DNA of 59,773 nt from a bacterium (GCA_036396895.1 DASWKB010000030.1:1-59773); one strand, 5' to 3'; numbered from the stretch's first letter, positions 8,049-58,245 are shown. Program-made: numbers and translations. The notes: generated by a model from the letters alone, not told the origin.

Positions 8049-8140
8049 GGATGCTGGATGGGAACCGGACCTCGGCAAACGAGAAGCTGGAAGCTGGAAT
8101 GCGCTCCGCATCATTCCAGCTTCCAGCATCCAGGTTCCCG
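8049..8140. repeat. Inverted heptamer array (GAAGCTG type)
   Basis: gctggaagctggaatg (8086-8101) is the exact reverse complement of cattccagcttccagc (8112-8127). Outer pieces ggatgctgga/tccagcatcc and gggaacc/ggttccc. Confidence 0.85.
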
Positions 8141-8178
8141 AATCCGGCCAGATTCGGCCGCGCCAGGGGACCGGGTCA

Positions 8179-8207
8179 TTGCGCGGAGACGAGGAGCGTG
8201 CTAGACT
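8179..8207 (+). promoter_or_regulatory. Putative sigma70 promoter for the lipoprotein-pgsA-der-plsY unit
   Basis: TTGCGC (8179-84), 17 nt, TAGACT (8202-07) with extended -10 TG. A 5'-UTR hairpin (ggatga 8213-18 / tcatcc 8243-48) precedes SD GGAGGAGG. Confidence 0.55.
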
Positions 8208-8268
8208 ACCACGGATGAGTTGAGCCGGCTGGAACCGGCCGATCATCCACAGCGGAGGAGGGCACACG

Positions 8269-8655
8269 ATGAAACGAGCGCTCGGCACGGTTGCGGCGGT
8301 CGGGCTGACAGCCGTCGCCATGGGGCTGGCCGGATGCGAGTCCATGGGCACCGCGGCGCAGTCCAAGACGGTTCAGGGCGGAGTCCTCGGCGGCGCGCTC
8401 GGCGCGGCCACGGGGGCGGTGATCGGGCATCAGACAGGCCGCGCGGGCGAAGGCGCCGCGATCGGCGCGGGTCTCGGTGCCGTCGGCGGCAGTCTGGTCG
8501 GCCACGGCATGAGCGAGCAGGAGCGCCGGCTGCAGCAGCAGCAGACGCCGCAGGCGACCGCCGGCACCAAGTTCTGCCCCGTGGGCGGAGAGCTGTACAG
8601 CGAGGACATCAAGTACTGTCCGAAGCACGGGGTCGAGCTTCGCGTCAAAGAATAA
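8269..8655 (+). CDS. Glycine-zipper lipoprotein with C-terminal Cys/His motif
   Basis: Lipobox LAGC; GGVLGGALGAATGAVIG...GAAIGAGLGAVGGSLVG zipper; tail FCPVGGELYSEDIKYCPKHG; strong SD. Confidence 0.8.
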   Translation: MKRALGTVAAVGLTAVAMGLAGCESMGTAAQSKTVQGGVLGGALGAATGAVIGHQTGRAGEGAAIGAGLGAVGGSLVGHGMSEQERRLQQQQTPQATAGTKFCPVGGELYSEDIKYCPKHGVELRVKE

Positions 8656-8683
8656 GAGCCGGAGCTGATCCGCCGCGCGGGCG

Positions 8684-9226
8684 ATGAGCCTCCCCAACAA
8701 GCTCTCCGTCCTGCGCATTCTCCTGGTTCCCGGGGTGGTGGCGTCGCTCGTGTATTACCATCCCTCCCGTGACTGGCTGCGGTGGGTCGCGTTTGCGCTG
8801 TTCGCCGCCGGCATGGTGTCCGACGCGCTCGACGGCATGCTCGCCAGAGCGCGCCGCGAGCACTCGGAGCTGGGCGCGTTGCTCGATCCGATCGCGGACA
8901 AGCTGCTGATCCTCGCCACGCTGATCAGCTGCGCCGCCATCGAGGGGCTGCCGGCGTCGATGCGGGTGCCCGCCTGGTTCAATCTCATCGTCATCAGCCG
9001 GGACGTCATCCTGGTGACGGGCGTGCTGCTGCTCTTCGCGATCCAGGGCCGCTGGCGCGTCGCGCCGACGCGGCTCGGCAAATGGACCACCGGAGTCCAA
9101 ATGCTCGTCATTCCCACCGTCCTGCTCGGCCTGCCGGTCAAAACGCCCCTCATCGCGGCCGCCAGCGTGCTGACCGTGTGTTCGGGGATCAGCTATGTGC
9201 GGCTCGGGCTGCGCATGCTTGACTGA
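8684..9226 (+). CDS. CDP-alcohol phosphatidyltransferase (PgsA family)
   Basis: SDALDGMLAR...GALLDPIADK signature; hydrophobic segments. Confidence 0.92.
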   Translation: MSLPNKLSVLRILLVPGVVASLVYYHPSRDWLRWVAFALFAAGMVSDALDGMLARARREHSELGALLDPIADKLLILATLISCAAIEGLPASMRVPAWFNLIVISRDVILVTGVLLLFAIQGRWRVAPTRLGKWTTGVQMLVIPTVLLGLPVKTPLIAAASVLTVCSGISYVRLGLRMLD

Positions 9227-9237
9227 TCGTCCGGCCC

Positions 9238-10629
9238 ATGGCGTCCCCCGGCCTCCCGTCTGATGCCCTCCGCGTCGCGATCGTCGGGCGTCCCAACGTC
9301 GGCAAGTCGACGCTGTTCAACCGCCTGCTCGGGGCGCGCCGCGCCGTCGTGTCGCCGGTGCGCGGGACGACGCGGGATCGCGTGTCGGGCCGGATGCGTT
9401 GGCGGGACCGGACGCTCGTGCTGACCGATACCGGGGGGTTCGAGGCCGACAGCGCCTCCGCACTCGAAGCGGCCATCCAGCGGCACATCGCGACCGCGGT
9501 CCGCGAGGCCGACGTCGTGCTGTTTGTCTGCGATGCCCGGGACGGACTCGTCCCGCAGGATGAGCTGGTCATGGACGCGCTCCGGCCCTCCGGCAAACCC
9601 ATCGTGGTCGCGGTGAACAAGGTGGATCACGGCCTCGGGCCGCCGGAAGAGTTCTTCGAGTTCGGTTTGGAGCGCGTGCACGGGGTCTCGGCGCTTCACG
9701 GGCGTGGCATCGGGGACCTGCTCGAGACGCTCGCCGAATGCGCCTCCCGCGGGGAATCGGAGCCGGAGACGCCCGTGTCGGCGGCGGTGGCGATTCTCGG
9801 GCGGCCGAATGTGGGCAAGTCCTCGCTCTTCAACGCGCTGTTGGCCGAGGAACGGGTCATCGTGAGCGAGCGGCCTGGCACCACGCGCGACGCCATCGAT
9901 ACGCCCATCGTCGTGGGCGGGACCCGGGTCACCATCGTGGACACCGCAGGGCTGCGGCACCGGAGAAAAGTGCGCGACCCGGTCGACATGTTTTCGATGT
10001 CCCGGTCGATCGACGCCATCGATCGCTGCGACGCGGCCATCATGGTGGCGGACGCGACTCAGGGCGTCACGCGAGATGACGCCCGGATCGCCACCAGAGT
10101 CGTCGCCGCCGGGCGGGGGCTCGTGCTGGCGCTCAACAAGTGGGATCTGGTGGAGGGTGTCGATCCCGCGTCGCTGCCGGCGTATATCCGCGACCAGTTG
10201 CCCTTCGCGGCTTTCGCGCCCGTGTTCGCGATATCGGCCAAGACCGGCGCGGGCGTGATGGCCCCGCTTGAATCCGCCATCGACATCGCTTTCCGGATTC
10301 GCGCCGGGGTTCCCGCCAACGAAGTGGAGGCGCTGCTCAAGGCGGCTTGGACGTCTCATCCGCCGCCGAGGATGCGGGGGCGCCTTGTGAATCTCAAACA
10401 CGCCGTCTGGAGGGCCGAACGCGACGGCGGAGCGCGCCGGCACCCGGGCGTGGAGCTCTCGATTGCCCCGCCGGGTCCGCTGCCCGCCGTCTACCGGCAG
10501 TATCTGCTGAACCGGTTGTATGCCGACGCGCGGTTTCGCGGCATCCCGATCACCATCGCCGTGAAAGAGCCGGAGCGCCTCAAGCGCCGGCGCGTCCGTC
10601 ACGCCAGGGGCGGGAGGAGGACCCGATGA
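9238..10629 (+). CDS. der: Ribosome biogenesis GTPase Der (EngA)
   Basis: Two GRPNVGKS P-loops, DTGG/DTAG, NKVD/NKWD, GTTRD twice. Confidence 0.97.
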   Translation: MASPGLPSDALRVAIVGRPNVGKSTLFNRLLGARRAVVSPVRGTTRDRVSGRMRWRDRTLVLTDTGGFEADSASALEAAIQRHIATAVREADVVLFVCDARDGLVPQDELVMDALRPSGKPIVVAVNKVDHGLGPPEEFFEFGLERVHGVSALHGRGIGDLLETLAECASRGESEPETPVSAAVAILGRPNVGKSSLFNALLAEERVIVSERPGTTRDAIDTPIVVGGTRVTIVDTAGLRHRRKVRDPVDMFSMSRSIDAIDRCDAAIMVADATQGVTRDDARIATRVVAAGRGLVLALNKWDLVEGVDPASLPAYIRDQLPFAAFAPVFAISAKTGAGVMAPLESAIDIAFRIRAGVPANEVEALLKAAWTSHPPPRMRGRLVNLKHAVWRAERDGGARRHPGVELSIAPPGPLPAVYRQYLLNRLYADARFRGIPITIAVKEPERLKRRRVRHARGGRRTR

Positions 10630-11243
10630 GCGCGGCGCAGGCGGCGGCATGGATCGGCGCGTATCTGTTGGGCTCGGTGCCGACGGGATTCCTGGTGGTG
10701 CGGGCGCTGGCCCACGTCGACGTGCGCACGGTCGGCAGCGGCGGCACCGGCGCGACGAACGCCGGCCGGGTCCTGGGCCGGCGCGGAGCGGTGCTGGTGT
10801 TCGTCCTGGACATGGCGAAGGGGTGGCTGGCGGTGCGCGTCCTGGCCCCATGGGGCGGGGGAGGGGCGGATCCGCTCATGGAGTGGAGTTGCGCGCTGTT
10901 GGCGGTCGCGGGCCACTGCTATCCGGCATGGCTCGGGTTCCGCGGAGGCAAAGGTGTCGCCACGACGGTCGGCGCGCTGGCCGGCATGTTGCCGGTGTTG
11001 GCGCTCGTGTTTGCGGCGGTCTGGGCGGGCTGCGCCGCCGTCTGGCGATTCGTCTCCGTGGGGTCGATGGCCGGCGCCGTAGCCGTTCCGGTCGCGCAGG
11101 CGGCGTTGGGTCTGTCCGTCGGCGAAACGGGCTTCGGGATCTTGCTCGCGCTGCTCATCGCGCTGCGCCACCGCGAGAATGTCCGCCGCCTCGTGCGCGG
11201 CACCGAACCCAAGATCGGCCGATCGTCATCTGCATCGAAATAA
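10626..11243 (+). CDS. plsY: Glycerol-3-phosphate acyltransferase
   Basis: YLLGSVPTG, GSGGTGATN, DMAKG, GHCYP..LGFRGGKGVAT, RHRENVRRLVRGTE. ATGA overlap with der. Confidence 0.95.
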   Translation: MSAAQAAAWIGAYLLGSVPTGFLVVRALAHVDVRTVGSGGTGATNAGRVLGRRGAVLVFVLDMAKGWLAVRVLAPWGGGGADPLMEWSCALLAVAGHCYPAWLGFRGGKGVATTVGALAGMLPVLALVFAAVWAGCAAVWRFVSVGSMAGAVAVPVAQAALGLSVGETGFGILLALLIALRHRENVRRLVRGTEPKIGRSSSASK

Positions 11244-11269
11244 CAGCGGGTCCGAAGCTGGAGCGCCTT

Positions 11270-11470
11270 GGGGCGCGGGGCGCGGCGTGAGAATGACCAT
11301 GAGAAGATAGAAGGAAGAAGGTAGAAGGTAGAGAAAGCAAAACGACCATTTTCGTTCCACCCTCCACCCGCCACCCCCCACCTTCCACCTTCTCACAATG
11401 ACGCGATGGCCCCTCGCCTCATTCCCCGTGCCCCGGATACGGATGGACTGACGGAACAGACGGAATTGAC
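11270..11470. repeat. Nested inverted heptamer arrays plus nonamer array
   Basis: GGGGCGC x2; GAAGATA/GAAGGAA/GAAGGTA/GAAGGTA (11303-330); TTCCACC-type x5 (11355-389); CCCCGTG-type (11410-435); GACGGAA nonamers (11441-470). Confidence 0.85.
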
Positions 11471-11504
11471 CAAGCTCAAACGGTGAAGCTCGGCGACACG
11501 ATGA

Positions 11505-11532
11505 TTGACAACGGTGGAAACTCAGCTACAAT
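11505..11532 (+). promoter_or_regulatory. Putative sigma70 promoter
   Basis: TTGACA (11505-10), 16 nt, TACAAT (11527-32). Supports ATG 11547 as the SPOR gene start. Confidence 0.65.
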
Positions 11533-11546
11533 GGTGCCCACGGTAC

Positions 11547-12098
11547 ATGGCCACAGATCCGACGAGCCAGCTTGAGCTGTTTCAATTTTCTGACCGGACG
11601 GCTCCCAAGCCGCACCGCGAAACACTGGGCTGGTTGCAGCTGACGTTCCGCTATGATCAGCTCGTCCTGGTGGGGATCGGCGGTCTGCTCGCGCTGACGG
11701 CGGTGTTCGCGCTGGGTGTCGAGCGCGGCAAGCAGTTGGCGAGGACCGAGCGCGCTCTGCTCGTCCGGCGGATTGCCAAGCCCGCCGCGGCGCCGGAGCC
11801 GGCTGCGGCCGCGCCCGCACCCGCCGAGGAACCAGCGGCGCCTGCGAATCCGCCGGCTCTCACCGCGGCTCAGGCGGACGCAACGCGGTACGTGGTCCAG
11901 GTGGTCACGTACAGCCGGCCTCAACTGGCGACGAGGGAGCTTGAACGGCTTCGGGCGAGCGGAGAACTGGCATTCCTCGCGGACCGGCGCGGCCAGACCG
12001 TGCTGTATGTGGGCCCGTTCGAGTCGAAAGACAACGCCAAGCGTAAACTCAGCACGCTGCGGCAGACCTATCGCGATTGTTTCATGAGGACCCTGTAA
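11547..12098 (+). CDS. Single-pass membrane SPOR-domain protein (FtsN/DedD-like architecture)
   Basis: Short N-tail, TM helix (LVLVGIGGLLALTAVFALGV), Ala/Pro linker, C-terminal YVVQVVTY...VLYVGPFESKDNA SPOR-like domain. Confidence 0.8.
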   Translation: MATDPTSQLELFQFSDRTAPKPHRETLGWLQLTFRYDQLVLVGIGGLLALTAVFALGVERGKQLARTERALLVRRIAKPAAAPEPAAAAPAPAEEPAAPANPPALTAAQADATRYVVQVVTYSRPQLATRELERLRASGELAFLADRRGQTVLYVGPFESKDNAKRKLSTLRQTYRDCFMRTL

Positions 12099-12100
12099 CG

Positions 12101-12346
12101 ATGTCCATACACCCATCGCTTCGCTCGCGCAAGGCGTCGACCGGCGCGCTCAGGAACGTCCTGAAGCGCTTCGAGCGCGTCCGGCATCTACAGGAGCGCG
12201 GCACGTGGACGGACGGCCGTTCGGTCTACGGGCTGCCCAAGATCAAGCAGACCAAGGTCAAGGCCCGCAAGAGCGCCGCCAAGGAAACCGAGGCGGCCGC
12301 CGCGGCTCCGGCGGCGCCGGGCGCCGCCGGCTCGACGGCTGCGTAG
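12101..12346 (+). CDS. PVC-superphylum small basic (signature) protein, TIGR04137-like
   Basis: MSIHPSLR...RNVLKRFERV..L...G.W..G.SVYGLPKIK pattern characteristic of this family; Ala-rich tail. Confidence 0.88.
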   Translation: MSIHPSLRSRKASTGALRNVLKRFERVRHLQERGTWTDGRSVYGLPKIKQTKVKARKSAAKETEAAAAAPAAPGAAGSTAA

Positions 12347-12369
12347 AAATTTCGCGAAGCGAAATTTCT
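12345..12369. repeat. 11-bp AT-rich perfect inverted repeat
   Basis: agaaatttcgc-gaa-gcgaaatttct, overlapping the sbp stop codon. Confidence 0.7.
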
Positions 12370-12394
12370 GAATCGAGAAAGACGCAGAATGCTG

Positions 12395-12429
12395 CACCCC
12401 GGCGGACAGCCGGGGTGTTGTTGTCTTGT
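12395..12429 (+). terminator. Putative intrinsic terminator after sbp
   Basis: caccccggc-ggaca-gccggggtg 9-bp stem followed by T-rich ttgttgtcttgt. Confidence 0.6.
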
Positions 12430-12435
12430 GAATCC

Positions 12436-13185
12436 ATGCCGCAATCCATCGCGTTCGCATCCAGGCGTCCCGCCGGCCCTCCGGGAGAGGAAGTGCGCCC
12501 CGGCCGCGGGGTTCCCGTCGCGTCCGTGAGCCGCATGCAGCGCATCGACGAGGAGGCGATCGGGCGGTTCCGCATCCCCCGCCTGCTCTTGATGGAGCAC
12601 GCGGGGCTTGCGCTGGCGCACACCGTGCACCATCTCCTTCCGGATCCGACGGCTCCGCTCCTGGTCTGCTGCGGCACCGGCTACAACGGCGGGGACGGCC
12701 TGGCCGCCGCGCGCCATCTCGCCCTCTGGGGGTATCGCCCGTGCATCCTCATCGCCGGCTCTCTCGAGGGCCTCCGCGAGGAATGCGCGGCGTTCGCCGC
12801 CATGGCCCGCGCCGCGGGGCTCGTGATCGAATCGCCTCCGGCTCCCGGCGCCCGCGGCCCGCACGCGCGCGCGTGGTCCGAGTACGGCGGCATCATCGAC
12901 GCGTTGCTCGGCATCGGGCTGCGCGGCGAGGTGCGTCAGCCCGAACGGGACCTGATCGAGGCCATCAACGGCTCGGGCGCACCGGTCATCGCGGCGGACG
13001 TCCCCTCGGGGCTCGACGCCGACTCGGGTCGCCCGCTCGGCGCGGCGATCCGCGCGGCCGCTACCATCGCGTTCGGCCTGCCGAAGCGCGGCTGCCTGGC
13101 CCCCGGAGCCGCCGCCTACACGGGCCGGCTGTTCGTCCATCCGATCGGAATTCCGCCGAGCCTGCTGGAGCCCGAAGGCCCATGA
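12436..13185 (+). CDS. nnrE: NAD(P)H-hydrate epimerase (stand-alone YjeF N-domain)
   Basis: MQRIDEEAI...LLMEHAG, CGTGYNGGDG, IDALLGIG, DVPSGL, TIAFGLPKRG. Start uncertain. Confidence 0.88.
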   Translation: MPQSIAFASRRPAGPPGEEVRPGRGVPVASVSRMQRIDEEAIGRFRIPRLLLMEHAGLALAHTVHHLLPDPTAPLLVCCGTGYNGGDGLAAARHLALWGYRPCILIAGSLEGLREECAAFAAMARAAGLVIESPPAPGARGPHARAWSEYGGIIDALLGIGLRGEVRQPERDLIEAINGSGAPVIAADVPSGLDADSGRPLGAAIRAAATIAFGLPKRGCLAPGAAAYTGRLFVHPIGIPPSLLEPEGP

Positions 13186-14303
13186 GCCGTCGGCATCGCG
13201 CGATTCGCGTGTCGCTGGGTCCGCGCTCGTATCCGATCGTGCTGGCCGGCTCCTTCGCCGGGCTGCCGGGCGAGATGCGGCGGCTTGCGCTGCCGCGCCT
13301 CGCGTGGGTCGTCTCGCACGCGCGGCTGCTCGCGACGCACGGACGGCCGCTGTGCGCGTCGCTTGAGCGCGGCGGATGGACCGTCCGCGTGATCACGGTG
13401 CCGGAGTCGGAGCGCGCCAAATCGTTCGCGACGGCGCGCCGGGTGATGGCTCGCGTCGCGCGCGGCAGCCCGATGCGGGTGCCGGTGCTCGTGGCCTTCG
13501 GCGGGGGCGTGGTCGGAGATCTCGCGGGGTTCGTCGCGTCCGTGTACCGCCGCGGCGTGCCCTACGTGCAGGTCGCCACGACGCTGCTCGCGCAGGTCGA
13601 TTCGGCCATCGGCGGGAAGGTCGCCATCGATCTTCCGGAAGGGAAGAATCTCATCGGCGCCTATCACCAGCCGCGCCTCGTCTGGAACCATCTGGGTCTC
13701 CTGCGTACGCTGCCGCCGCGCCAGCGCCGGTCGGGGCTGGCCGAGGTGCTGAAGTACGGCGTCATCGCGGATCCGTGGCTCTGGCGGTATCTGGAGCGCC
13801 GCCTGGATGCGTGTCTGGCGCTGACGCCGGGCGCCGCCCGCGTGATGGTGGAGCGCTCGTGCGCCGTCAAGGCGCGCGTGGTGTCCCTCGATGAGCGGGA
13901 AACCCGGGGACCCAGACTGCATCTCAACTACGGGCACACGATCGGGCACGCGCTGGAGACGGTCACGGGGTACCGGCGATTCACGCACGGCGAAGCGATC
14001 GCCGTCGGGATGTGCGCCGCGGCGCACTTGAGCGCCGCCCTCGGGCGCTGTTCGTCCGGCGACGCGGATCGCATCGAGAGCCTGATCCTGGCCGCGGGAC
14101 TCCCCGTGCGCGCCGATGGGGTGGATCCGGAGGCGGTGCTCATGGCGCTTCGCTACGACAAAAAGTTCGTGCGGGGACGCGCCCGCTGGGTGCTGCCGAC
14201 CCGCATCGGACGGGTGATCGTGGCTGAGGACGTGCCGGAGGCCGCGGTGCGGGCCACGGTCCGCCGGTACGTGCGCAAGCGAGGAGGAGTCCGGCATGGC
14301 TGA
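13182..14303 (+). CDS. aroB: 3-dehydroquinate synthase
   Basis: GGGVVGDLAGF, TTLLAQVDSAIGGK, EVLKYG, LNYGHTIGHALE, HGEAIAVG, DKK. Confidence 0.96.
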   Translation: MSRRHRAIRVSLGPRSYPIVLAGSFAGLPGEMRRLALPRLAWVVSHARLLATHGRPLCASLERGGWTVRVITVPESERAKSFATARRVMARVARGSPMRVPVLVAFGGGVVGDLAGFVASVYRRGVPYVQVATTLLAQVDSAIGGKVAIDLPEGKNLIGAYHQPRLVWNHLGLLRTLPPRQRRSGLAEVLKYGVIADPWLWRYLERRLDACLALTPGAARVMVERSCAVKARVVSLDERETRGPRLHLNYGHTIGHALETVTGYRRFTHGEAIAVGMCAAAHLSAALGRCSSGDADRIESLILAAGLPVRADGVDPEAVLMALRYDKKFVRGRARWVLPTRIGRVIVAEDVPEAAVRATVRRYVRKRGGVRHG

Positions 14304-14559
14304 GGCGCGAATGGAGCCCGTGGGGCGGGTGACGGGGTTCTTCTCGAAAGCGTCGGTTGCGGTGGTCGATCTCAGCGGGGCGCTGGCGGTGGGCGATCAG
14401 ATCTACATCAAGGGGCACACGACGGACCTCCAGCAGGCGGTGGACTCCCTGCAGGTGGACCACCAGGCCGTGACGCAGGGGTCGCCGGGGCAGACCGTCG
14501 GGTTGAAGGTTGCCGGGCGCTGCCGCCCGCACGACCTGATCTATCGTCTTGCCGCGTGA
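14296..14559 (+). CDS. Small beta-barrel protein (translation-elongation-factor-like / U32 C-terminal-like)
   Basis: VGRVTGFFSKASVAVV.L.G.L.VGD.I.IKG.TT...Q.V.SLQVDH......PGQ.VGLKV pattern; SD GAGGAG. Confidence 0.7.
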   Translation: MAEARMEPVGRVTGFFSKASVAVVDLSGALAVGDQIYIKGHTTDLQQAVDSLQVDHQAVTQGSPGQTVGLKVAGRCRPHDLIYRLAA

Positions 14560-14607
14560 CGGCGCGCGTGCCGTTCCAACAACGTCGGAGCGGGACGGCC
14601 CCGGGTC

Positions 14608-15120
14608 CTAGGACCCGAGCTCGAGCGTCAACTCCGTGCCGTTGGCGCGGCGCAGCGTGACATCCCGCTCCCGCACGGCCGTGAGCGTCGCGGAGCCGAT
14701 CGTCTCGCCGACCGTCACGATCCTCCCATTGATGATGGCGTACGAGCGGCCGTCTCCGAAGACGATGCCGGAGAGTTCCAGGGTTCCGGGCCGCCTGGCG
14801 GGAGGAGCGGGGATGGCCGACGGGGTCGCCTCAGGGTCACGGGCCGGGATGGTCGCGGGCTCAGGCGCCGGCGGGTCTCCCACGAATCGTCCGCCGATCA
14901 CGGCCACCCCCCAGATCCCGAGCACGATGAGGCCGAGCACCGCCATGCCGAGCGCGGGGGGGCGCGTGGGTTCGGATTCGGCTTCGCCCTGCGTCTGCCA
15001 GGCATGCGCAGCGGGATCCGTCTTGGACGGCGCCTGAGCCGCGCCGGGCTTGGGCGGGGTGCGGACGCGCTTCAAGGTCGGATCGCGGTCGCGCCGAAGC
15101 GCTTCGTCAATGAGGCTCAT
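14608..15120 (-). CDS. GspB/ExeB-like single-pass membrane protein
   Basis: MSLIDEALRR start, one TM, Pro-rich linker, LSGIVF....YAIINGRIV.VGETI C-terminal domain; directly downstream of an ExeA-like ATPase. Confidence 0.7.
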   Translation of the reverse strand: MSLIDEALRRDRDPTLKRVRTPPKPGAAQAPSKTDPAAHAWQTQGEAESEPTRPPALGMAVLGLIVLGIWGVAVIGGRFVGDPPAPEPATIPARDPEATPSAIPAPPARRPGTLELSGIVFGDGRSYAIINGRIVTVGETIGSATLTAVRERDVTLRRANGTELTLELGS

Positions 15121-15967
15121 CCGGTCCTCCCTCATCAGGCCGGTCTCGGTCGTCGTCCTGGACCTGACCCGACAGCTCGCGGAAGCTGCGGCGTACGATC
15201 TCCCCGTCCACCCGCTTGACCCGGAGAATGTAGCAGGCCAGGAGGCAGCGGTCGCACAGCACGTTGATGAGCCGCGGGACGCCCTTGGCATAGCGGTGCA
15301 CGAGCTCCGTCGCGTCCGGCGTCCATTCGAGCGTCCCGTCCGCTCCGGCGGTTCTGAGACGGTGCTCGATGTACGTGCGGACCTCGTCCAGATCGAGCGG
15401 GCTGATGTGGTACCGGACGGCGATCCGCTGGCGGAGCTGCTCGAGCTGGGGCTGGGCGAGCTTCTCGCGCAGCTGGGGCTGGCCGACGAGGATGATCTGG
15501 ATCAGCTTGTCCTTGTCCGTCTCGAAGTTCGAGATCATCCGGATCTGCTCCAGGAGGCGCAGGCTGAGATTCTGGGCCTCATCGATGATGACCGCGGTGT
15601 TGCGGCCGAGCTCCGCCTGCTCCAGGAGGAACTGGTTCAGCTGGGTGAACAGGCCGAGCCGGTTGCCCCTGGACGGGTTCAGGCCGAAGTCCTCCACGAT
15701 GGCGTGCAACAGCTGCAGCTCCGACAGGTTCGAGTGGAGGATGAGCGCCGTCCGGGTCGTCTCGTCGAGGTGGCGCAGGAGCGACTTGCATAGCGTCGTC
15801 TTGCCGGAGCCGATCTCGCCGGTGATGGCCACGAAGCCCTTGCGCTCGCGGATCCCGTAGATCATGTGCGAGAGCGCCTCCCGGTGCTTGCGCGAGAGGT
15901 AGAGGAAGGACGGATCGGACGTGACCGAGAACGGCTTTTCGCGCAATCCGAGAAATTCGAGATACAT
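15107..15967 (-). CDS. ExeA/GspA-family AAA+ ATPase
   Basis: MYLEFLGLREKPFSVTSDP, GEIGSGKT Walker A, IIDEAQNL Walker B, LVGQPQL, LRQRI, GVPRLINVLCD. Confidence 0.92.
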   Translation of the reverse strand: MYLEFLGLREKPFSVTSDPSFLYLSRKHREALSHMIYGIRERKGFVAITGEIGSGKTTLCKSLLRHLDETTRTALILHSNLSELQLLHAIVEDFGLNPSRGNRLGLFTQLNQFLLEQAELGRNTAVIIDEAQNLSLRLLEQIRMISNFETDKDKLIQIILVGQPQLREKLAQPQLEQLRQRIAVRYHISPLDLDEVRTYIEHRLRTAGADGTLEWTPDATELVHRYAKGVPRLINVLCDRCLLACYILRVKRVDGEIVRRSFRELSGQVQDDDRDRPDEGGPDEPH

Positions 15968-16038
15968 GGCTCTCCCTTTTCGCTCAGCACGCCATTGTAG
16001 CTTGGCATGGACGGAGGCGCAACGGGGGCCTCGGGTCA

Positions 16039-16272
16039 GCGACAAGCGACAAGCAACGAGGGGCCAGCAACCGTGAACCAGGCTCGTTGCCGATCAGGTC
16101 TGAAGCTGGATGCTGGAAGCTTGAAGCTGGAACTACTCATTCCAGCCTCCAGCGTCCAGCCTCCAGCTTCCGACCACTGAACGCCACGGTACACGTTGCA
16201 CGGCACACGATGATAGCCCGCCCCTCGCCCCGTGCCCCGTCTCTGGACTTGTCACCTGTCACTAGTCACGCA
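16039..16272. repeat. Nested inverted heptamer arrays
   Basis: Outer left GCGACAA GCGACAA GCAACGA GGGGCCA GCAACCG TGAACCA; inner GAAGCTG-type x4 (16102-129) versus TTCCAGC-type x4-5 (16140-174); outer right GCCCCTC GCCCCGT GCCCCGT ... CTTGTCA CCTGTCA CTAGTCA. Confidence 0.85.
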
Positions 16273-16331
16273 CTTCTTTGATCACAGACCCCAGGGAGAC
16301 CCCAGGGAGGCTGGCGACACCCGGACGTGCA

Positions 16332-16340
16332 TGGTAGAAT
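16332..16340 (+). promoter_or_regulatory. Possible extended -10 promoter for pgk
   Basis: TGgTAGAAT about 40 nt before the pgk ATG; no good -35. Confidence 0.35.
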
Positions 16341-16381
16341 ACCCGTTCAGATATGCGACCCGCCACAAAGGACACCAAGCC

Positions 16382-17599
16382 ATGAAACAGACAGTTCGTG
16401 ACATCGACGTCAAGGGCAAGCGGGTGCTGATCCGGGTGGATTTCAACGTGCCGCTCGAGAAGAGCTCGGGCGCGATCACGGACGACACCCGCATCAGGGA
16501 AAGCCTCCCGACCATCCGCCACTGCCTCGAGCAGGGCTCGCGGGTGATCCTCATGAGCCATTTGGGCCGCCCGAAGGGCCAGCGCGTGGCGTCCATGTCG
16601 CTGCGTCCCGTGGCGGAACGGCTGGGGGCGCTCGTGGGGCGCCCGGTGCGGTTTTCCGAGTCCGCCATCGGTCCGGAGGCCGAACGCGCGGTCTCGGCGC
16701 TGAAGCCCGGGGAACTGCTACTCTTGGAGAACCTGCGGTTCATGCCGGAGGAGGAGAAGAACGACCCCGGGCTGGCGCGGCAGCTGGCACGCCTCGGGGA
16801 CGTCTTCGTGAACGACGCGTTCGGGAGCGCGCACCGCGCGCATGCGTCGACCGAAGGCGTGGCGCACCATCTGCCCGCCGTCGCGGGATTCCTGATGGAG
16901 AAAGAGATCCGGTATCTCGATGAGGCGCTCGCCGAGCCTGCGCGGCCCTACGTCGCGATTCTCGGCGGGGCGAAAGTCTCGGACAAGATCGGCGTCCTCA
17001 CCCGGCTGCTCGAGCGGGTGGACCGCGTGCTGATCGGCGGCGGGATGGCCTACACGTTCCTCAAGGCGCAGGGGCGCGCGATCGGATCCTCGAAGCTCGA
17101 AGCGGACAAGGTGGAGCTGGCGGGCGCGCTGCTGGCGGACGCGGCGCGGCGGAAGGTCGAACTCGTGCTGCCGAGGGACCACGTCATCACGACGTCGCTC
17201 GAAGACGGCAGCGACATGCAGCGCACCGCAGGCGCGGACATTCCCGAGGGGTGGCTGGGCGCGGACATCGGCCCCGAGAGCGTGCGGGAGTTCCTGCGGG
17301 CGCTGGGGGGCGCCAAGACGGTGATCTGGAACGGCCCGGTCGGCGTGTTCGAGCAGCCGCGGTTCGCGGAGGGCAGCCTGGCCGTCGCCAGGGCGCTGGC
17401 CGCGCTCGATGGGACCACCGTCATCGGGGGCGGGGATACGGCCGCGTGCGTCCAGCAGTTCGGACTCGCGAAGACCATGAGCCATATCTCGACCGGCGGC
17501 GGGGCGTCGCTGGAATTTCTCGAGGGCAAGGTGCTGCCGGGGATCGCGATTCTCAGGGACCGCTCCGAAACGGCCGCGGCCCGTCCCGGAGCGCCGTGA
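16382..17599 (+). CDS. pgk: Phosphoglycerate kinase
   Basis: RVDFNVP, SHLGRP, LLENLRF, NDAFGSAHRAHAS, GGAKVSDKI, WNGPVGVFE, GGGDT, STGGGASLEFLEG. Confidence 0.99.
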   Translation: MKQTVRDIDVKGKRVLIRVDFNVPLEKSSGAITDDTRIRESLPTIRHCLEQGSRVILMSHLGRPKGQRVASMSLRPVAERLGALVGRPVRFSESAIGPEAERAVSALKPGELLLLENLRFMPEEEKNDPGLARQLARLGDVFVNDAFGSAHRAHASTEGVAHHLPAVAGFLMEKEIRYLDEALAEPARPYVAILGGAKVSDKIGVLTRLLERVDRVLIGGGMAYTFLKAQGRAIGSSKLEADKVELAGALLADAARRKVELVLPRDHVITTSLEDGSDMQRTAGADIPEGWLGADIGPESVREFLRALGGAKTVIWNGPVGVFEQPRFAEGSLAVARALAALDGTTVIGGGDTAACVQQFGLAKTMSHISTGGGASLEFLEGKVLPGIAILRDRSETAAARPGAP

Positions 17600-17600
17600 G

Positions 17601-18374
17601 ATGCGCCGGCCGATCGTCGCAGGCAACTGGAAGTGCCACCTGACCGTGCCGGAGGCCACCGAGCTCGTGCAGCAGCTCGTGTCCGGCTGCGACACGGACG
17701 CGGTGGACGTGGTGGTCTGTCCCGCGTTTACCGCGCTCGCGCCGGTGGGCGTCCTGCTGGAGGGTTCCGTGTTGCAGCTGGGAGCGCAGGACGTCTTCTG
17801 GGAGGCGCAGGGCGCGTTCACCGGCGAGGTGTCTCCCGCCATGCTCCGGGACGTCGGGTGCCGCTACGTGATCGTCGGGCATTCGGAGCGGCGGCGGGTG
17901 TTCGGCGAATCCGACGAGACGGTCCGGCGGAAACTGCGCGCGGTCTTCGCGCACAACCTCAAGCCGATCCTCTGCATCGGGGAGACGCTCGAGGAGCGCG
18001 AGGCGGGCCGCACGGCTGCGGTGCTGGAGCGCCAGCTGGAGGGCGCGCTCGAGGGGGCCGATCCCGCCGAGTGCGAGCGGCTCGTCGTGGCGTATGAGCC
18101 GGTTTGGGCGATCGGGACCGGGAGGCACGCCGCGCCCGAGCAGGCGCAGGAGGCGCATCAGACGATCCGCCGGTGGCTCGCCGGGCGGCTGGGCGAGCGG
18201 ACGGCCAAGTCGGTGCGGATTCAGTACGGCGGCAGCGTGACGGCGGTCAACGCCGGCGCGCTGCTCGGGCAGCCCGACGTGGACGGCGCGCTCGTGGGCG
18301 GGGCGAGCCTCAAGGCGGGCAGTTTCGGCACGATCGTGAAGGCGGCCCACGAAACGCAGGCGGTGAACCGGTGA
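17601..18374 (+). CDS. tpiA: Triosephosphate isomerase
   Basis: AGNWK, GHSERR, AYEPVWAIGTG, YGGSV, LVGGASL. Confidence 0.99.
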   Translation: MRRPIVAGNWKCHLTVPEATELVQQLVSGCDTDAVDVVVCPAFTALAPVGVLLEGSVLQLGAQDVFWEAQGAFTGEVSPAMLRDVGCRYVIVGHSERRRVFGESDETVRRKLRAVFAHNLKPILCIGETLEEREAGRTAAVLERQLEGALEGADPAECERLVVAYEPVWAIGTGRHAAPEQAQEAHQTIRRWLAGRLGERTAKSVRIQYGGSVTAVNAGALLGQPDVDGALVGGASLKAGSFGTIVKAAHETQAVNR

Positions 18375-18772
18375 TGTACTACGTGATTCTGGCGGTCCAT
18401 GTGCTCGTGTGTGTGTTGCTCATCGTCATCATCCTCGTGCAGGGCGGGCGGGGCGGGCTGGGCGAAGCGCTCGGCGGATCCGGTTCGCAGTCGCTCTTCG
18501 GCGGGGGCACGAACGTCGTGATCGCGAAAGTCACCGCCGTCGGCGGCGCCGTCTTCATGGCGACGTGCCTGACGCTGGCGCTCCTGTCGGCCGCGCGGGG
18601 CCGTTCGGTCATCGAACGGGTCCCGGCCACGCTGCCGGACGTGTTCCCGGCGGCGCTGCCGCAGGCAGATGCACAGCGGTTGCCGGCTCCTCCGGCGAGC
18701 GCCCAGCCGGAGCCGGAGGCGGCGGCTCCCGAGGGCACCCCGGAGCCGGCCGGGACTCTCACGCCGGAATAA
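18374..18772 (+). CDS. secG: Preprotein translocase subunit SecG with Pro/Ala-rich tail
   Basis: TM1, LVQGGRGGLG...GGSGSQSLFGG, TM2; canonical position after tpiA. Confidence 0.92.
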   Translation: MYYVILAVHVLVCVLLIVIILVQGGRGGLGEALGGSGSQSLFGGGTNVVIAKVTAVGGAVFMATCLTLALLSAARGRSVIERVPATLPDVFPAALPQADAQRLPAPPASAQPEPEAAAPEGTPEPAGTLTPE

Positions 18773-18777
18773 CCCCC

Positions 18778-20589
18778 GTGCGCGCGCCCACGCGTGGACA
18801 GTTCGACCCGGAGGAACGGCGCGCCCGTCCGGTCGGCCGGGCGGCGATGGTGTGCGCCCTGGCGGCGGCGCTGGCCGGATGCGGCGGACACCCCCGCGCG
18901 CCGGAGCCGCCGCAGGCGCCCGCGGACGCGCCGGAATCCTCCGGGACATCCGAACCGCGCGTCGGCGGCACGATCACCCTCTCAGCCACAGCGGACCCCA
19001 AATCCTTCAATCCCATCGTGGCCATGGAGACGTCCACCACGGCGGTGACGGGCCTGATCTTCGAAGGGCTCACCCGGACCAACGGGATCACGACGGAGGT
19101 GGAGCCCGCGCTGGCGGAATCCTGGGAGGTCAGCGAGGACGGTCTCCGATGGATCTTCCGGCTCCGGCGGGACGTCTCCTGGTCAGACGGCATGCCGTTC
19201 ACGTCCGAGGACGTCGTCTTCACCTACCGGGACCTGATCTTCAATCTCCAGGTTCCGTCCAGCTCCAGGGACATCTTCACCATCGAAGGCCGCCCGATCG
19301 AGGTCCGGGCCGTGGACCCCCACACGGTGGAGTTCGTCACGGCCACGCCCTTCGCGCCGTTTCTCAGGGCGCTCGGCCAGGAGATCCTGCCGGCGCACCG
19401 GCTTCGCCGGGCGGTGGCCGCGGGGACGTTCGCCTCGACTTTGGGTCTCGATACGCCGCCTGAGGACATCATCGGGACCGGCCCGTTCCGGCTCATCGAG
19501 TATCTCCCGGGGCAATACGCGCGCTTCGTGCGCAACGAGCGCTACTGGCGCCGGGACGCGGACGGCCGGGCGCTGCCGTATCTCGAGGAAGTGCGGATGA
19601 TGTTCGTCCAGAGCCCGGATGTGGCGCTCCTCAAGTTCCAGGAAGGGGAGCTGGACCTCTACAGCCTGCGCTCGTCGGACTACAAGATCCTGAAGCCGGG
19701 GGAGCGCGCAGGCGGCTACACGGTGTTTGAGCTGGGGCCCGCCTTCGGCACCAACTTCCTCGTGTTCAATCAGAACCGGTCGGCCAACCCCGAGACCGGG
19801 CGGGCGGCCGTCCCCCCGCACAAGCTGGCCTGGTTCACCGACCGCGCGTTCCGGCGGGCCGTGGCCCGCGCCATCGACAAACCGGGCATCATCGAGATCG
19901 TCATGGACGGCCTCGGCTATCCCCAGCACGGCCCCATGAGCCCCTCGGCGGGCGCGTTTTACACCCCGGACGTGCCGGCGTATCCCTATGACGTGGCGCG
20001 CGCGCGCGCGGCGCTCGCGGAGGCGGGGTACCGCGATACCGACGGCGACGGGATCGTCGAGGATCCGGGCGGGCGGAAGGTCGAGTTCACGCTCTTCACG
20101 AACGCGGACAACACCGACCGGGTGCAGATCGCCAACTTGATCCGCAAGGACCTGGAGCGCCTCGGATTCAAGGTTCATTTCACGCAGCTGGAGTTCAACG
20201 CGCTTGTGACGAAACTGAACGCGACCTACGACTGGGATGCCATCATCATCGGCCTGACGGGAGGGATCGAACCTCATTTCGGCAAAAATGTCTGGCACTC
20301 GAGCGGCCATCTGCACATGTGGCATCCACGGCAGCCGGAGCCCGCCGCTCCGTGGGAAGCCGAGATCGACCGGATCTTCGACCGTGCGGTCCAGGAGCTC
20401 GACCCCGCCGCGCGCAAGGCGCTGTACGACCGCTGGCAGGTCATCGTCGCTGAGGAGCTGCCCGTCATCTACACGGTCCTGCCGCCGGCGCTGACCGCGG
20501 TGCGCGACCGGTTCGGCAATCTCCGCCCCACGGCCTTCGGGGGCGCCCTGCACAACCTCGAGGAACTGTACGTGCTCGACGGCCAATGA
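18778..20589 (+). CDS. ABC transporter substrate-binding lipoprotein (family 5, OppA/DppA-like)
   Basis: Lipobox LAGC, DPKSFNP, LAESWE, WSDGMPFTSEDVVFT, GTGPFRL, FRRAVARAID. Start GTG 18778 or ATG 18847. Confidence 0.92.
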   Translation: MRAPTRGQFDPEERRARPVGRAAMVCALAAALAGCGGHPRAPEPPQAPADAPESSGTSEPRVGGTITLSATADPKSFNPIVAMETSTTAVTGLIFEGLTRTNGITTEVEPALAESWEVSEDGLRWIFRLRRDVSWSDGMPFTSEDVVFTYRDLIFNLQVPSSSRDIFTIEGRPIEVRAVDPHTVEFVTATPFAPFLRALGQEILPAHRLRRAVAAGTFASTLGLDTPPEDIIGTGPFRLIEYLPGQYARFVRNERYWRRDADGRALPYLEEVRMMFVQSPDVALLKFQEGELDLYSLRSSDYKILKPGERAGGYTVFELGPAFGTNFLVFNQNRSANPETGRAAVPPHKLAWFTDRAFRRAVARAIDKPGIIEIVMDGLGYPQHGPMSPSAGAFYTPDVPAYPYDVARARAALAEAGYRDTDGDGIVEDPGGRKVEFTLFTNADNTDRVQIANLIRKDLERLGFKVHFTQLEFNALVTKLNATYDWDAIIIGLTGGIEPHFGKNVWHSSGHLHMWHPRQPEPAAPWEAEIDRIFDRAVQELDPAARKALYDRWQVIVAEELPVIYTVLPPALTAVRDRFGNLRPTAFGGALHNLEELYVLDGQ

Positions 20590-20591
20590 TT

Positions 20592-20843
20592 CCACAGAGA
20601 CACAGAGCGGAACGTCCGAGTACACCACAGATGTCACAGAGTGCGCTCGGAAATTTGATGAAGGTTTCCATGTTGAAACTTCTATTTCTACCTTCCACCG
20701 TCCACCTTCCACCTTCCACCTTCTTGCGTGGATGTCATGGTCCAATGCCCCATTCCCCGTGCCCCGATCTCAGACGGACTGACGGACCTGACGGACCTGA
20801 CGGACCTGACGGAACCGACGGAATAGACGGAACCGACGGACTC
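20592..20843. repeat. Composite array: CACAGAG nonamers, TTCCACC heptamers, CCCCGTG heptamers, 8 GACGGA nonamers
   Basis: CCACAGAGA CACAGAG...CCACAGATG TCACAGAG; TTCTACC TTCCACC GTCCACC TTCCACC TTCCACC (20686-720); TCCAATG CCCCATT CCCCGTG CCCCG; GACGGACCT x3 and variants (20773-843). Confidence 0.9.
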
Positions 20844-20897
20844 CGGTCCCGTCTCGCCATCCCGGCGTGGTGGCAACAGTGATCTGAGGCTCCCGAG

Positions 20898-22956: not shown

Positions 22957-22969
22957 TCGAAAACAACCA

Positions 22970-23058: not shown

Positions 23059-23104
23059 ATCATGCCGCAGACGATGGAGGGTGCGCGCATTCGGATGACT
23101 GGAG

Positions 23105-40093: not shown

Positions 40094-40096
40094 GCG

Positions 40097-56693: not shown

Positions 56694-57397
56694 CCATGCT
56701 GAACCGGTGGGTGTTCAATCTGGCGATTCTCGCGACGTCGATCCTGGTGGCGGTGACGGTGTATCAGTTCGTCGACATCGTCAACCGGGGCGGCCCGGTG
56801 ATGGTGCCGATCCTGGTCTGCTCGTTCTTCGCGCTGACCATCACGGTCGAACGGATGATTTATTTCGCTGGACTCGACGCCGACGCCGGAGCCTTCGCCG
56901 ACCGGCTTCGCGCGCTCGTGCAGGCGCGCCAGTGGACGGACGCCCAGGCGCTGTGCCGGGCCGCGCGCGGCCCCATCGCGAGGGTGGCGGCGGCGGGTCT
57001 CGCGGCCAGGGACCACGCGGCGCAGGACATCGAGCGGACCATGGAGGACGCGGCGCACGAGGAGCTCCCGCTCCTGGAGCGCCACCACCAGTGGCTGGCG
57101 ACGATCGCGCAGATCGCGACGTTGCTCGGGCTCCTCGGGACGGTGATCGGCATGGTGGCGGCGTTCCAGTCGGTCGAGACCAAAGCGGTGGGCGCAAGCC
57201 CGGTGAGTCCCGCGGATCTCGCCGGGGGGATCTGGCAGGCGCTGCTCACGACGGTCGCGGGGCTCTCCGTCGCGATCCCCACGATCCTGGCGTACAACTA
57301 CCTCGCGGGCCGGGTGACGGAGCTCCAGTTCCAGATCGAGCGCATCGCGGCGGTCCTGGCGAACTGGCGGCGGGCGGACGCCGCGGAGCGGCCATGA
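56690..57397 (+). CDS. MotA/TolQ/ExbB proton-channel protein
   Basis: GGPVMVPIL, LATIAQIATLLGLLGTVIGMV, LAGGIWQALLTTVAGLSVAIP. Confidence 0.93.
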   Translation: MTMLNRWVFNLAILATSILVAVTVYQFVDIVNRGGPVMVPILVCSFFALTITVERMIYFAGLDADAGAFADRLRALVQARQWTDAQALCRAARGPIARVAAAGLAARDHAAQDIERTMEDAAHEELPLLERHHQWLATIAQIATLLGLLGTVIGMVAAFQSVETKAVGASPVSPADLAGGIWQALLTTVAGLSVAIPTILAYNYLAGRVTELQFQIERIAAVLANWRRADAAERP

Positions 57398-57431
57398 GCG
57401 CCGGGGAGCGCGCCCGGCCGCGGAGCGCGCG

Positions 57432-57824
57432 ATGATCCGCATCCGGCGCGAGGGCACGCGCGCGGTGCCGGTCGACATCGCGCCGCTCATCGATATGGTG
57501 TTCAATCTGCTCTTGTTCTTCATGCTCACCTCGAGCTTCGTGCTCCATCCGAGCATCCGCGTCAGCCTGCCGCAGGCGAGTACGGCCCAGCGCACCTCCG
57601 CGACCAGCCTCATCATCACCCTGACCAAGGAGCACTTGGTCTACGTGAACGACGGCCTGGTGACGTTTACGGAGCTGGAGACGACCTTGGAACGCACGCC
57701 GCGGGACACGCCCGTGCTGATCCGGGCGGATCAGCATGCGTTCGTCGAAAAGCTCGTCGAGTTGTGGGATCTCTGCCGGCGGACCGGCTACGAGCGCGTC
57801 CACATCGCGACGCTGGCGGAATGA
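57432..57824 (+). CDS. ExbD/TolR biopolymer transporter
   Basis: DIAPLIDMVFNLLLFFML (TM Asp), LPQAS, VLIRAD. Confidence 0.93.
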   Translation: MIRIRREGTRAVPVDIAPLIDMVFNLLLFFMLTSSFVLHPSIRVSLPQASTAQRTSATSLIITLTKEHLVYVNDGLVTFTELETTLERTPRDTPVLIRADQHAFVEKLVELWDLCRRTGYERVHIATLAE

Positions 57825-58171
57825 TGAGACCCCGCCGGCGCGCGCAGGTCCTGCTGGTTCTGGTGACGCACCCGGCGGGGCGGGCCGCCGGGCGGTTCGC
57901 CGCGCGGCTCGTGGACGCGCGGCTGGCGGCATGCGTCAACATCCTTCCGGCGGCCGAGTCGGTCTTTTGGTGGCGGGGCAAGCTCGATCGCGGGCGGGAA
58001 TCGCTGCTGCTCATCAAGACCACGGCATCGGCATACGCGCCGCTGGAAGCGGCCATCACGCGCTGGCACCCGTATGACGTGCCGGAAGTCATTGCCGTTC
58101 CTATCATGAGGGGTTCAGCTCCCTATCTTGCCTGGGTGAAATCCAGCGTGCAGGCATCGCGGGCCCCTTAA
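57821..58171 (+). CDS. cutA: Divalent-cation tolerance protein CutA
   Basis: ARLAACVNI, SVFWWRGK, LLIKT, HPYDVPEVIAVP..G..YLAWV. Confidence 0.93.
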   Translation: MMRPRRRAQVLLVLVTHPAGRAAGRFAARLVDARLAACVNILPAAESVFWWRGKLDRGRESLLLIKTTASAYAPLEAAITRWHPYDVPEVIAVPIMRGSAPYLAWVKSSVQASRAP

Positions 58172-58200
58172 ATTCGACCATCGAGCCATGGGAATGAGTC

Positions 58201-58245
58201 GTCTGTGGCGTCTGTGGTGCTCTTGAGCTCTGTGCGCTCTGTGTG
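58201..58245. repeat. Nonamer array (CTCTGTG type)
   Basis: GTCTGTGGC GTCTGTGGT GCTCTTGAG CTCTGTGCG CTCTGTGTG; reverse-complement relative of the CACAGAG units at 20592-20642. Confidence 0.75.

Follow-up and report, generated by a model that had tools for sequence, protein, structure and literature searches.

Modular heptamer-array elements dispersed through the genome of an uncultured Omnitrophota bacterium: candidate REP/BIME- or MITE-like non-autonomous elements

In many bacterial genomes no other simple repeats with long units are as strongly over-represented as those of heptanucleotides. The cyanobacterial short tandemly repeated repetitive sequences (STRR), which Mazel and colleagues are said to have described in 1990, reportedly form tandem intergenic heptanucleotide arrays with several unit families per genome; they are said to be direct arrays and not capped palindromes with conserved loops, and they come from another phylum and have other units than the elements analyzed here. 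These elements lie in a DNA stretch of 59,773 nucleotides (DASWKB010000030.1; its whole length is called the window in the following), in which nine intergenic regions hold arrays of 7-nt or 9-nt units. Since units, caps, loops and linkers are shared by many contigs of the genome, we regard the arrays as a dispersed modular element that has had no name so far, as had been suspected in the initial annotation of the window. Heptamer repeats of this class are already in print, where they have been left without explanation, namely the GGGAATC / GGGGAYT repeats of Xanthomonas and Nostoc, whose function is unknown (Rehm et al. 2015, PMC4692102), and the multicopy elements of Geobacter metallireducens with four or five tandem heptanucleotides, Gmet_H4 and the "class 3 global regulator sites" (PMC2700814). 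A gene bracketed by an inverted stem is known from the intervening sequence (IVS) in the 23S rRNA of Coxiella, which carries an open reading frame and is processed by RNase III (PMC4990558).

The elements described here are a new and richly documented variant of this repeat class. With the repeats analyzed by Rehm et al. (2015) they share the tandem 7-nt units, the spread over the whole genome, the preference for four units, the intergenic excess and the frequent "convergent" inverted pairs that can form stem–loops. They differ in having about 40 unit types instead of one, in their conserved caps, loops and composite nested designs, in an about tenfold higher density (~640 arrays in 1.6 Mb against ~186 in ~5 Mb) and in the four-helix-bundle gene found inside one copy. 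In addition, the main units contain GG and not GGG, and the G-quadruplex rationale proposed for that class does not carry over. The Geobacter elements are alike in their four to five tandem heptamers, their dozens of copies and some strand-switching (hairpin) pairs; however, they belong to another phylum and have other units, some of their copies are intragenic whereas almost all are intergenic here, and neither a modular grammar nor a cargo gene has been described for them.

In an assembly of 1.62 Mb with 71 contigs, a GC content of 68% and a completeness of ~78%, the window forms contig C30. The LepA of the window is 76% identical to homologues from groundwater (NC_groundwater) metagenome-assembled genomes of Candidatus Omnitrophota, which assigns the window to an uncultured Omnitrophota bacterium. 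Using Tandem Repeats Finder together with direct reading of the sequence we recovered period-7 or period-9 arrays at all nine loci, at the places and with the units first reported. In the whole genome, arrays with at least 4 copies and at least 80% self-match were counted and compared with three third-order Markov simulations. There are 508 period-7 arrays against 0–5 in the simulations and 14 period-9 arrays against ~1, and the arrays thus lie far above composition-matched chance; the periods 5, 8 and 10–12 showed no enrichment over simulation genome-wide. A looser threshold gave 637 heptamer arrays of ~40 unit types, the commonest being GAAGCTG (91), GAAGGTA (61), GAAGGTG (48), CGGAATT (47), CGGAATG (41) and AACGCGT (27). 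These arrays group into ~335 loci, which cover ~12% of the non-coding DNA. Judged by a crude gene caller based on GC3, so that the percentages are approximate, 80% of the arrays fall between genes, and the ends of called genes account for another 14%. About 38% of all spacers of at least 40 nt hold an array locus, the spacer classes being occupied alike (tandem 39%, convergent 40%, divergent 36%), and a third of the array loci begin within 30 nt of a stop codon.

The GGAATKC family forms a capped palindrome, in which the cap YRTGCCAAAT is followed by four KCGGAAT units, a loop of 5–20 nt, four ATTCCGM units and the cap ATTTGGCAYR. There are 26 capped copies, the window loci at 22970 and 31044 among them, so that terminal inverted repeats with defined ends are present. 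In the GAAGCTG family the caps are GGTCNGA...TCNGACC, and the loop contains the motif YRATCGG next to the arm. Elements of the GAAGGTR family regularly lie inside a second pair of arrays, with GGGGCRC arrays and (G)ATGACCATGAG on one side and CTCATGG and CCCCRYG arrays on the other. This nested layout is repeated at many loci with identical linkers. The arrangement A-B...B'-A' is therefore an inherited composite design and holds no local record of successive insertions, contrary to the proposal that nested arms reflect several rounds of insertion and excision at the same site.

The loops, too, are shared between copies. A partner elsewhere with a local score of at least 12 exists for 35 of 77 loops, and for none after shuffling. 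Five contigs have the 23-nt loop CAGGAGCTGTTGCTAACCGATTG in identical form, with inner arms that are near-identical as well. On contig C32 a stretch of ~20 kb contains five copies of the loop GATCAGGCGGCGATCGCGCGTG, which lie in both orientations. The loop AAGCAAAACGACCATTT of window locus 11270 (11335–11353) is common to ~12 loci on other contigs, again in both orientations. An alignment of five copies with the loop designated B gave a mosaic, the modules (AACCAGC arrays, CCGTCTGTT nonamers, the core hairpin, ACGCGTT arrays and AATCCGC arrays) being shared by differing subsets of the copies. Such a mosaic resembles the bacterial interspersed mosaic elements (BIMEs) of Escherichia coli. The identical loops and linkers show that sequence has been copied between unlinked intergenic sites.

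Each unit consists of an invariant core and free positions: G.T.GA. in the GAAGCTG/GAAGGTR superfamily and GGAAT with KC in the third family, a GGAA core being common to all three largest families. Arm complementarity is 0.81–0.83 within an element and 0.82–0.84 between elements of a family, and the variable K of GGAATKC is complementary in 39% of the paired units, with 49% expected. Neither of these two tests revealed compensatory co-variation between the arms. What is conserved is the 7-nt core register and not the pairing of the arms. The number of units per arm has a local mode at four in all three main families (e.g., 77, 118, and 31 arrays with three, four, and five units), which agrees with the reports on Xanthomonas and Geobacter (PMC4692102, PMC2700814). 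In the genome 98 inverted array pairs are found, and in all 98 the purine-rich arm is the 5′ one. Since polarity is inherited by the copies within a family, this observation rests on only ~10–12 independent families. One relative (G010, L128:1010–1075) has a heptamer hairpin of GGATTTC / GAAATCC units without a purine-rich arm on the 5′ side, and the purine-first polarity is therefore not universal. We initially took it for a strong mechanistic clue and have downgraded it for both reasons.

For a comparison with relatives we used genomes of the same family. They all belong to other genera with orthologues of ~65–70% protein identity, so that the element boundaries cannot be aligned. The gene order lepA-lepB-lipoprotein-pgsA-der-plsY-SPOR-aroB-AAA_22 is kept in ~20 of them, and orthologous spacers were compared in up to 20 relatives, the lepB/lipoprotein spacer in 10 and the plsY/SPOR spacer in 2. 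Past AAA_22 synteny is kept in one relative only, and the oppC/oppD, leuB/asd and SNF/rplM spacers were therefore left out. Array density in the orthologous regions is 0–2.5 per 10 kb against ~7 per 10 kb in the matching part of the window. In the lepB/lipoprotein and plsY/SPOR spacers of the relatives we found neither arrays nor a four-helix-bundle cargo, and the filled alleles that had been predicted for related genomes did not appear. The lepB/lipoprotein spacer measures 233 nt here against a median of ~68 nt in the ten relatives. A promoter-like motif, TTGCG-N17-TAGAGT (also TACAGT), is kept in their short spacers and is retained here 3′ of the inserted hairpin. Short orthologous spacers free of arrays and cargo mark the elements as lineage-specific insertions; on the evidence of this comparison they are shown to be insertions relative to family-level relatives. 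The pattern (GGAATNN)x3GGAAT has 70 matches here against 0–2 in each of 200 other Omnitrophota genomes, and (GCTGGAN)x4 has 169 matches against 0–53 in 34 same-family genomes; these counts fit a burst-like expansion.

Two of the relatives' spacers deserve a separate mention. In G003 plsY and SPOR are separated by a 2-kb gap (L113:7616–9334), which we considered as a filled allele and rejected, as it holds two ordinary genes for repeat-containing proteins, no four-helix-bundle gene and no arrays. The product of one of them has 342 residues, within which a segment of ~60 residues is present three times in near-identical form. The extra genes are ordinary gene-content variation and not a cassette. 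The lepB/lipoprotein spacer of G023 (L086:2025–2140) contains another palindrome, GAGGGGTCAGACCCCTC ... GGGGTCTGACCCCTC, after the conserved promoter, so that one and the same gap is colonized by different repeat types in different genera.

The single four-helix-bundle gene of the genome (PF05635/TIGR02436; C3:36149–36535, low GC) lies exactly between GAAGCTG and TTCCAGC arrays, with arms like those at 8083, 16102 and 34553 of the window. The cassette keeps the family loop motif beside its 3′ arm (CGATTG immediately before TTCC). In the same family PF05635 genes are present in 24 of 35 genomes with 1–11 copies. Among the 29 PF05635 loci fetched from relatives a heptamer array lies within ~100 nt in 21 and on both sides in 14, each locus with its own unit. 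The association with TIGR02436 genes, which the initial annotation had stated for many genomes, is thus found here as well; its counterpart for GxxExxY genes (TIGR04256/PF13366) is not, the genome at its ~78% completeness giving no match. None of the nine window loci has a TIGR02436-family open reading frame between its arms. As the commonest family, with GAAGCTG arms, holds the genome's only TIGR02436 gene, the window hairpins are best seen as gene-less relatives of this cassette and not as sites which it left. The four-helix-bundle cassettes known from elsewhere (PF05635/TIGR02436, S23p, Avd-like) are likewise TIGR02436 genes bracketed by an inverted-repeat stem; unlike the 23S rRNA IVS, the window elements are gene-less and lie outside rRNA. 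Directly upstream of the C3 cassette (C3:35720–36090; L001:1030–1400) there are 4–5 tandem units of ~94 bp, each of them a half-element with a GAAGCTG-type arm and the left part of a loop (CAATCGGGCGGCATTTCTCC...).

With regard to candidate enzymes, the statement that no transposase is present holds for the window and not for the genome, in which we found four genes similar to the tyrosine transposases associated with repetitive extragenic palindromes (RAYT; Y1/HUH type, best match NF047646, one above the cut-off). They are located at C4:13699–14286 (L132:1468–2055), on C43 (L133), at C16:5148–5828 (L134) and on C45 (L135). Those on C4, C43 and C16 are bracketed by their own non-heptamer REP hairpins, of which one (CCGGGACAGTCCCGG) has ~35 sites genome-wide and the other two have 9 and 5; for the C45 gene a flanking REP of its own was not established. 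The C16 gene in addition sits inside a nest of AACGCGT / GGGGCGA ... CCCCG / ACGCGTT arrays, the background being 38% of the spacers. By these gene and repeat assignments the genome is host to ordinary REP-RAYT systems beside the heptamer elements. RAYT as the default mobilizer of the heptamer elements was rejected because of these separate REPs beside the RAYT genes. A reverse transcriptase domain was not found in the genome.

We consider the heptamer-array elements to be non-autonomous elements of the REP/BIME or MITE (miniature inverted-repeat transposable element) kind which are copied in trans by a putative protein reading the 7-nt register, and give this reading a probability of roughly 0.6. 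The REP/BIME/REPIN-RAYT systems of E. coli and Pseudomonas resemble our case in their hundreds of short extragenic palindromes, module mosaics, lack of a target duplication and bursts in single lineages, and RAYT-type (NF047646) proteins are encoded in this genome. They differ in that RAYT genes here (three of the four) carry their own REPs at their flanks and not heptamer repeats, and that the heptamer arms have neither a single conserved stem nor a GTAG-type 5′ motif. Defined inverted ends are shared with MITEs, whereas a target duplication (looked for by eye in the flanks of the 26 capped copies) and a transposase parent with the same ends were not found. In this reading the nine loci belong to several related families of small non-coding palindromic elements which multiplied in this Omnitrophota lineage. 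An element consists of defined end caps, two inverted arms of typically four 7-nt units each and a short oriented loop; each unit has an invariant core of 4–5 nt (G.T.GA. or GGAAT) and 2–3 free positions, and the purine-rich arm is always the 5′ one. Larger nested forms are fixed composite designs, modules are exchanged between copies, and the elements insert into any kind of spacer. For the mechanism and the mobilizing protein we infer that they would spread as non-autonomous elements, mobilized in trans by a putative protein which reads the 7-nt register of the core motifs, with folded or single-stranded nucleic acid as its probable substrate. The elements would be largely neutral or selfish passengers, whose only certain consequence would be an imperfect hairpin in the DNA and in read-through transcripts.

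Several observations weigh against this interpretation. Inspection by eye of the sequences flanking the 26 capped copies gave neither a target-site duplication nor a conserved target motif. A cognate mobilizing enzyme was not identified in the genome, the RAYT-like genes being flanked, in three of four cases, by their own non-heptamer REPs and the assembly being only ~78% complete. The sole gene-bearing copy carries the four-helix-bundle gene and not a transposase, and we know of no catalytic activity in the four-helix-bundle family; moreover, three relatives with 7–13 GCTGGAN arrays have no PF05635 gene. About 47% of the loci consist of a single detected array without a hairpin. To explain these single-array loci an additional process has to be assumed, for example decay, partial copying or slippage. 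Strong folding (z < -3) is found for ~68% of the loci with at least two arrays and for 9% of the single-array loci. The only other public contig with this region, located by exact-protein look-ups with the lipoprotein and RpsI, is 100% identical over the 8.4 kb compared, so that no presence/absence or unit-number polymorphism is available, and no movement of elements was seen between the two contigs. Finally, the elements may have a function for the host.

A more specific proposal is that the heptamer hairpins are the non-autonomous members of a mobile class without transposase, whose autonomous form is the PF05635/TIGR02436 Avd-like cassette. The oligomeric protein of the cassette would recognize the 7-nt register, with its core of 4–5 nt, its free spacer and its ~4 units per arm, in nucleic acid that is folded or single-stranded, and would enlist replication or repair of the host to copy the element. 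We hold this proposal to be unlikely as it stands. If true, it would explain why the cores are kept without co-variation of the arms and why four units are preferred, and also the likeness of the 23S rRNA IVS, the operon-junction cassettes and the heptamer repeats of Xanthomonas, Geobacter and cyanobacteria.

Whichever protein may be involved, the Omnitrophota genome is an extreme case in which such repeats behave as copied, capped and modular elements and not as products of slippage. The search for a mechanism is narrowed to a protein reading a 7-nt register, and substrates for binding and mobility assays are provided. In annotation these hairpins should not be labelled as terminators, as regulatory sites or as empty cassette sites.

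The nine window loci, which have no strand assigned, and the promoter-like motifs next to them are as follows (z refers to the RNA fold used as a measure of hairpin strength):

8046–8155, no strand: locus 1, spacer of lepB and a glycine-zipper lipoprotein gene, extended hairpin (z = -7.4); inner arms GAAGCTG x2.4 (8083–8099) and TTCCAGC x3.6 (8114–8138), outer degenerate units GGATGCT... and ...ATCCAGG.
8179–8207, + strand: promoter-like TTGCGC-17-TAGACT, 3′ of the locus 1 hairpin, for the lipoprotein gene, read by eye.
11270–11470, no strand: locus 2, plsY/SPOR spacer, composite with a mismatched, weak hairpin (z = -1.4); GGGGCGC x2.3 (11270–11285), linker ...ATGACCATGAG, GAAGGTA-type arm (11302–11334), the conserved loop AAGCAAAACGACCATTT (11335–11353), TCCACCC-type arm (11356–11392), CCCCTCG/CCCCGTG arm (11411–11436) and GACGGA-type units (11437–11470).
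11505–11532, + strand: sigma-70-like promoter TTGACA-16-TACAAT, downstream of locus 2, for the SPOR gene, from the strict scan with 11/12 matches.
16038–16269, no strand: locus 3, spacer of the divergent AAA_22 gene (-) and pgk (+), three-level nest (z = -5.6) with CCCCGTG among its units; GCGACAA x2.4 (16038–16054) followed by GGGGCC, core of GAAGCTG x4.4 (16102–16132), a 7–8 nt loop and TCCAGCC x4.4 (16141–16171), right outer part CCCCTCGCCCCGTGCCCCG (16221–16240) and CTTGTCA x3.3 (16247–16269).
20592–20841, no strand: locus 4, oppA/oppB spacer, one-armed modules without hairpin (z = +0.7); CACAGAG-core units (20592–20622), TTCCACC x5.4 (20686–20723), CCCCATTCCCCGTGCCCCG (20749–20767) and the nonamer GACGGACCT x7.8 (20773–20841).
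22970–23058, no strand: locus 5, oppC/oppD spacer, capped palindrome (z = -7.1) with CGGAATG / CATTCCG arrays (22975–23053); TGCCAAAT, (KCGGAAT)x4, 17-nt loop, (ATTCCGM)x4 and ATTTGGCA.
25041–25215, no strand: locus 6, oppF/marC spacer, composite (z = -5.2); GGGGCGCGGGGCGAGCGGG (25041–25059, outer GGGGCGC-type arm), CATGAG linker, GAAGGTA/GAAGATG arm (25068–25121), loop, TTCTACC-type arm (25136–25170) and GACGACG/GGACGAC units (25190–25215).
25246–25275, + strand: promoter-like TTGCGC-18-TATAAT, downstream of locus 6 and upstream of marC, by eye and absent from the strict scan output.
31044–31109, no strand: locus 7, leuB/asd spacer, GGAATKC-family palindrome (z = -4.9) with arrays at 31052–31106; degenerate left cap CGAAAT, ~4 units per arm, 4-nt loop and right cap ATTTGGCA.
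34489–34626, no strand: locus 8, spacer of the SNF transporter gene and rplM, composite with a GAAGCTG-type core hairpin that is paired (z = -2.3 for the whole region); CGCGTCA x2.3 (34489–34504), GGGGCGGGGGGCC (34507–34520), GAGGCTGGAGGCCGGAA arm (34553–34570), loop CAACCGGACGGCGACAGCGCGCG and TTCCAGC x4.4 (34593–34623).
34688–34716, + strand: promoter-like TTGACA-17-TACAAT, downstream of locus 8 and upstream of rplM (gene-call start 34775), by eye.
58200–58251, no strand: locus 9, 3′ of the gene 57821–58171 that follows exbD, no hairpin (z = -0.3); direct nonamer-like units CGTCTGTGG x2 and CTCTGTGNG without an inverted partner.

RNA folding gives hairpins for seven of the nine loci (z from -7.4 to -1.4), and at locus 3 the inner, middle and outer arms are all paired. 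The description of the arrays as mostly inverted pairs thus fits the window apart from 20592 and 58201, which are one-armed or direct only; in the whole genome only ~40% of the loci are clear hairpins. Nesting is seen at four loci (11270, 16039, 25039 and 34491) rather than at the two reported at first. Locus 8 has a near-identical element at C19:9781. The public gene calls place the start of the SPOR gene at 11547 and that of asd at 31119. Six of the loci had been placed just upstream of sigma-70 promoters. A strict scan of 8000–25400 returned only one promoter after an array (11505–11532), the motif at 8179–8207 failing it; three further motifs were recognized by eye. The elements within operons (oppC/oppD and leuB/asd) must be transcribed, and by analogy their stems may be processed by RNase III like those of the IVS (PMC4990558).

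Some REP/BIME elements are known to act as RNA hairpins, and so are the intervening sequences of 23S rRNA. The heptamer elements might likewise serve the host as stabilizers of mRNA 3′ ends, as RNase III sites or as transcriptional insulators, and the folding of most window loci, the third of the array loci close to a stop codon, the position of several loci past the stop codon of one gene and ahead of the following promoter and the established excision of IVS stems by RNase III (PMC4990558) speak for such a role. In 8000–25400, however, no hairpin is followed by a T-tract, and none of the hairpins there is among the nine terminator-like sites of this region, the total of which is not above the shuffled expectation. 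The loops have the same orientation as transcription in five cases and the opposite one in seven, and lone arrays show no strand bias (30 sense, 44 antisense, p = 0.13). Taken together with the equal occupation of divergent and convergent spacers, the lack of co-variation between the arms and the absence of elements at the orthologous sites compared in relatives, these results argue against a terminator or insulator role as first suggested and suit largely neutral or selfish elements that occupy any non-coding gap; nearly half of the loci are no hairpins anyway. We judge a host function as RNA hairpin to be unlikely. Quite unlikely, and slightly more so, is a role as host binding platform or non-B DNA, in which a regulator, a nucleoid protein or a G-quadruplex would read four spaced cores. 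The invariant core with free positions, the four-unit mode and the GGAA core of the three largest families would suit it, and there are precedents in the Geobacter "global regulator sites" (PMC2700814) and the Xanthomonas G-quadruplexes (PMC4692102). Yet recognition of four cores is also compatible with a mobilizing protein, there are ~40 different unit types, the expansions are lineage-specific, and every kind of spacer is occupied with no link to gene function. The G-quadruplex variant was rejected: the main units GCTGGAA, GGTRGAA and GGAATKC have only GG, which is too short for a stable three-tetrad structure, and the minor GGGGCGC family alone has at least three G.

The loci could also be empty or scarred cassette sites, from which a small gene of the four-helix-bundle or GxxExxY type was excised, nested arms recording repeated insertion and excision. 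The filled C3 copy, which agrees with them in its arms and in the loop motif beside the arm, and the relatives' PF05635 genes, which usually lie between heptamer arrays, are what such an explanation would lead one to expect. Against it, ~335 loci face one four-helix-bundle gene and no GxxExxY gene, and the loops are conserved, oriented and common to dispersed copies, unlike independent scars. The nested layouts repeat with identical linkers, and the orthologous spacers compared in relatives are short and without arrays or cassette genes. We therefore find this initial interpretation improbable. Least probable of all, and hardly credible to us, is a local origin of each array, through templated addition of repeats to broken DNA in the manner of telomerase or a retroelement, or through replication slippage. 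It would account for the fixed polarity of the 98 pairs, the varying unit number, the independence of the arms at the free positions and the many one-armed loci. However, distant copies have identical loops, caps and linkers, and the polarity goes back to few independent families. The variant involving a reverse transcriptase or telomerase was rejected, as the genome has no reverse transcriptase domain.

The window genes are mostly on the + strand and of the housekeeping type (lepA, lepB, der, plsY, pgk, tpi and the opp operon, further leuB, asd, rplM/rpsI, arg genes and exbD). At 25190–25215, 11437–11470 and 20773–20841 the GACGGA core is repeated every 7 nt in GGACGAC/GGACGAT units or every 9 nt in GACGGACCT and GACGGAACA; one core with different spacer lengths fits a design of a core plus a free spacer. 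Beside locus 3, at or 5′ of the called pgk start, there is a perfect 11-nt direct repeat, AGACCCCAGGG x2.2 (16286–16309), which is unrelated to the heptamer families. At 26370–29927 the window encodes a 1,185-residue protein composed of a spermidine-synthase-like domain and many TPR repeats.

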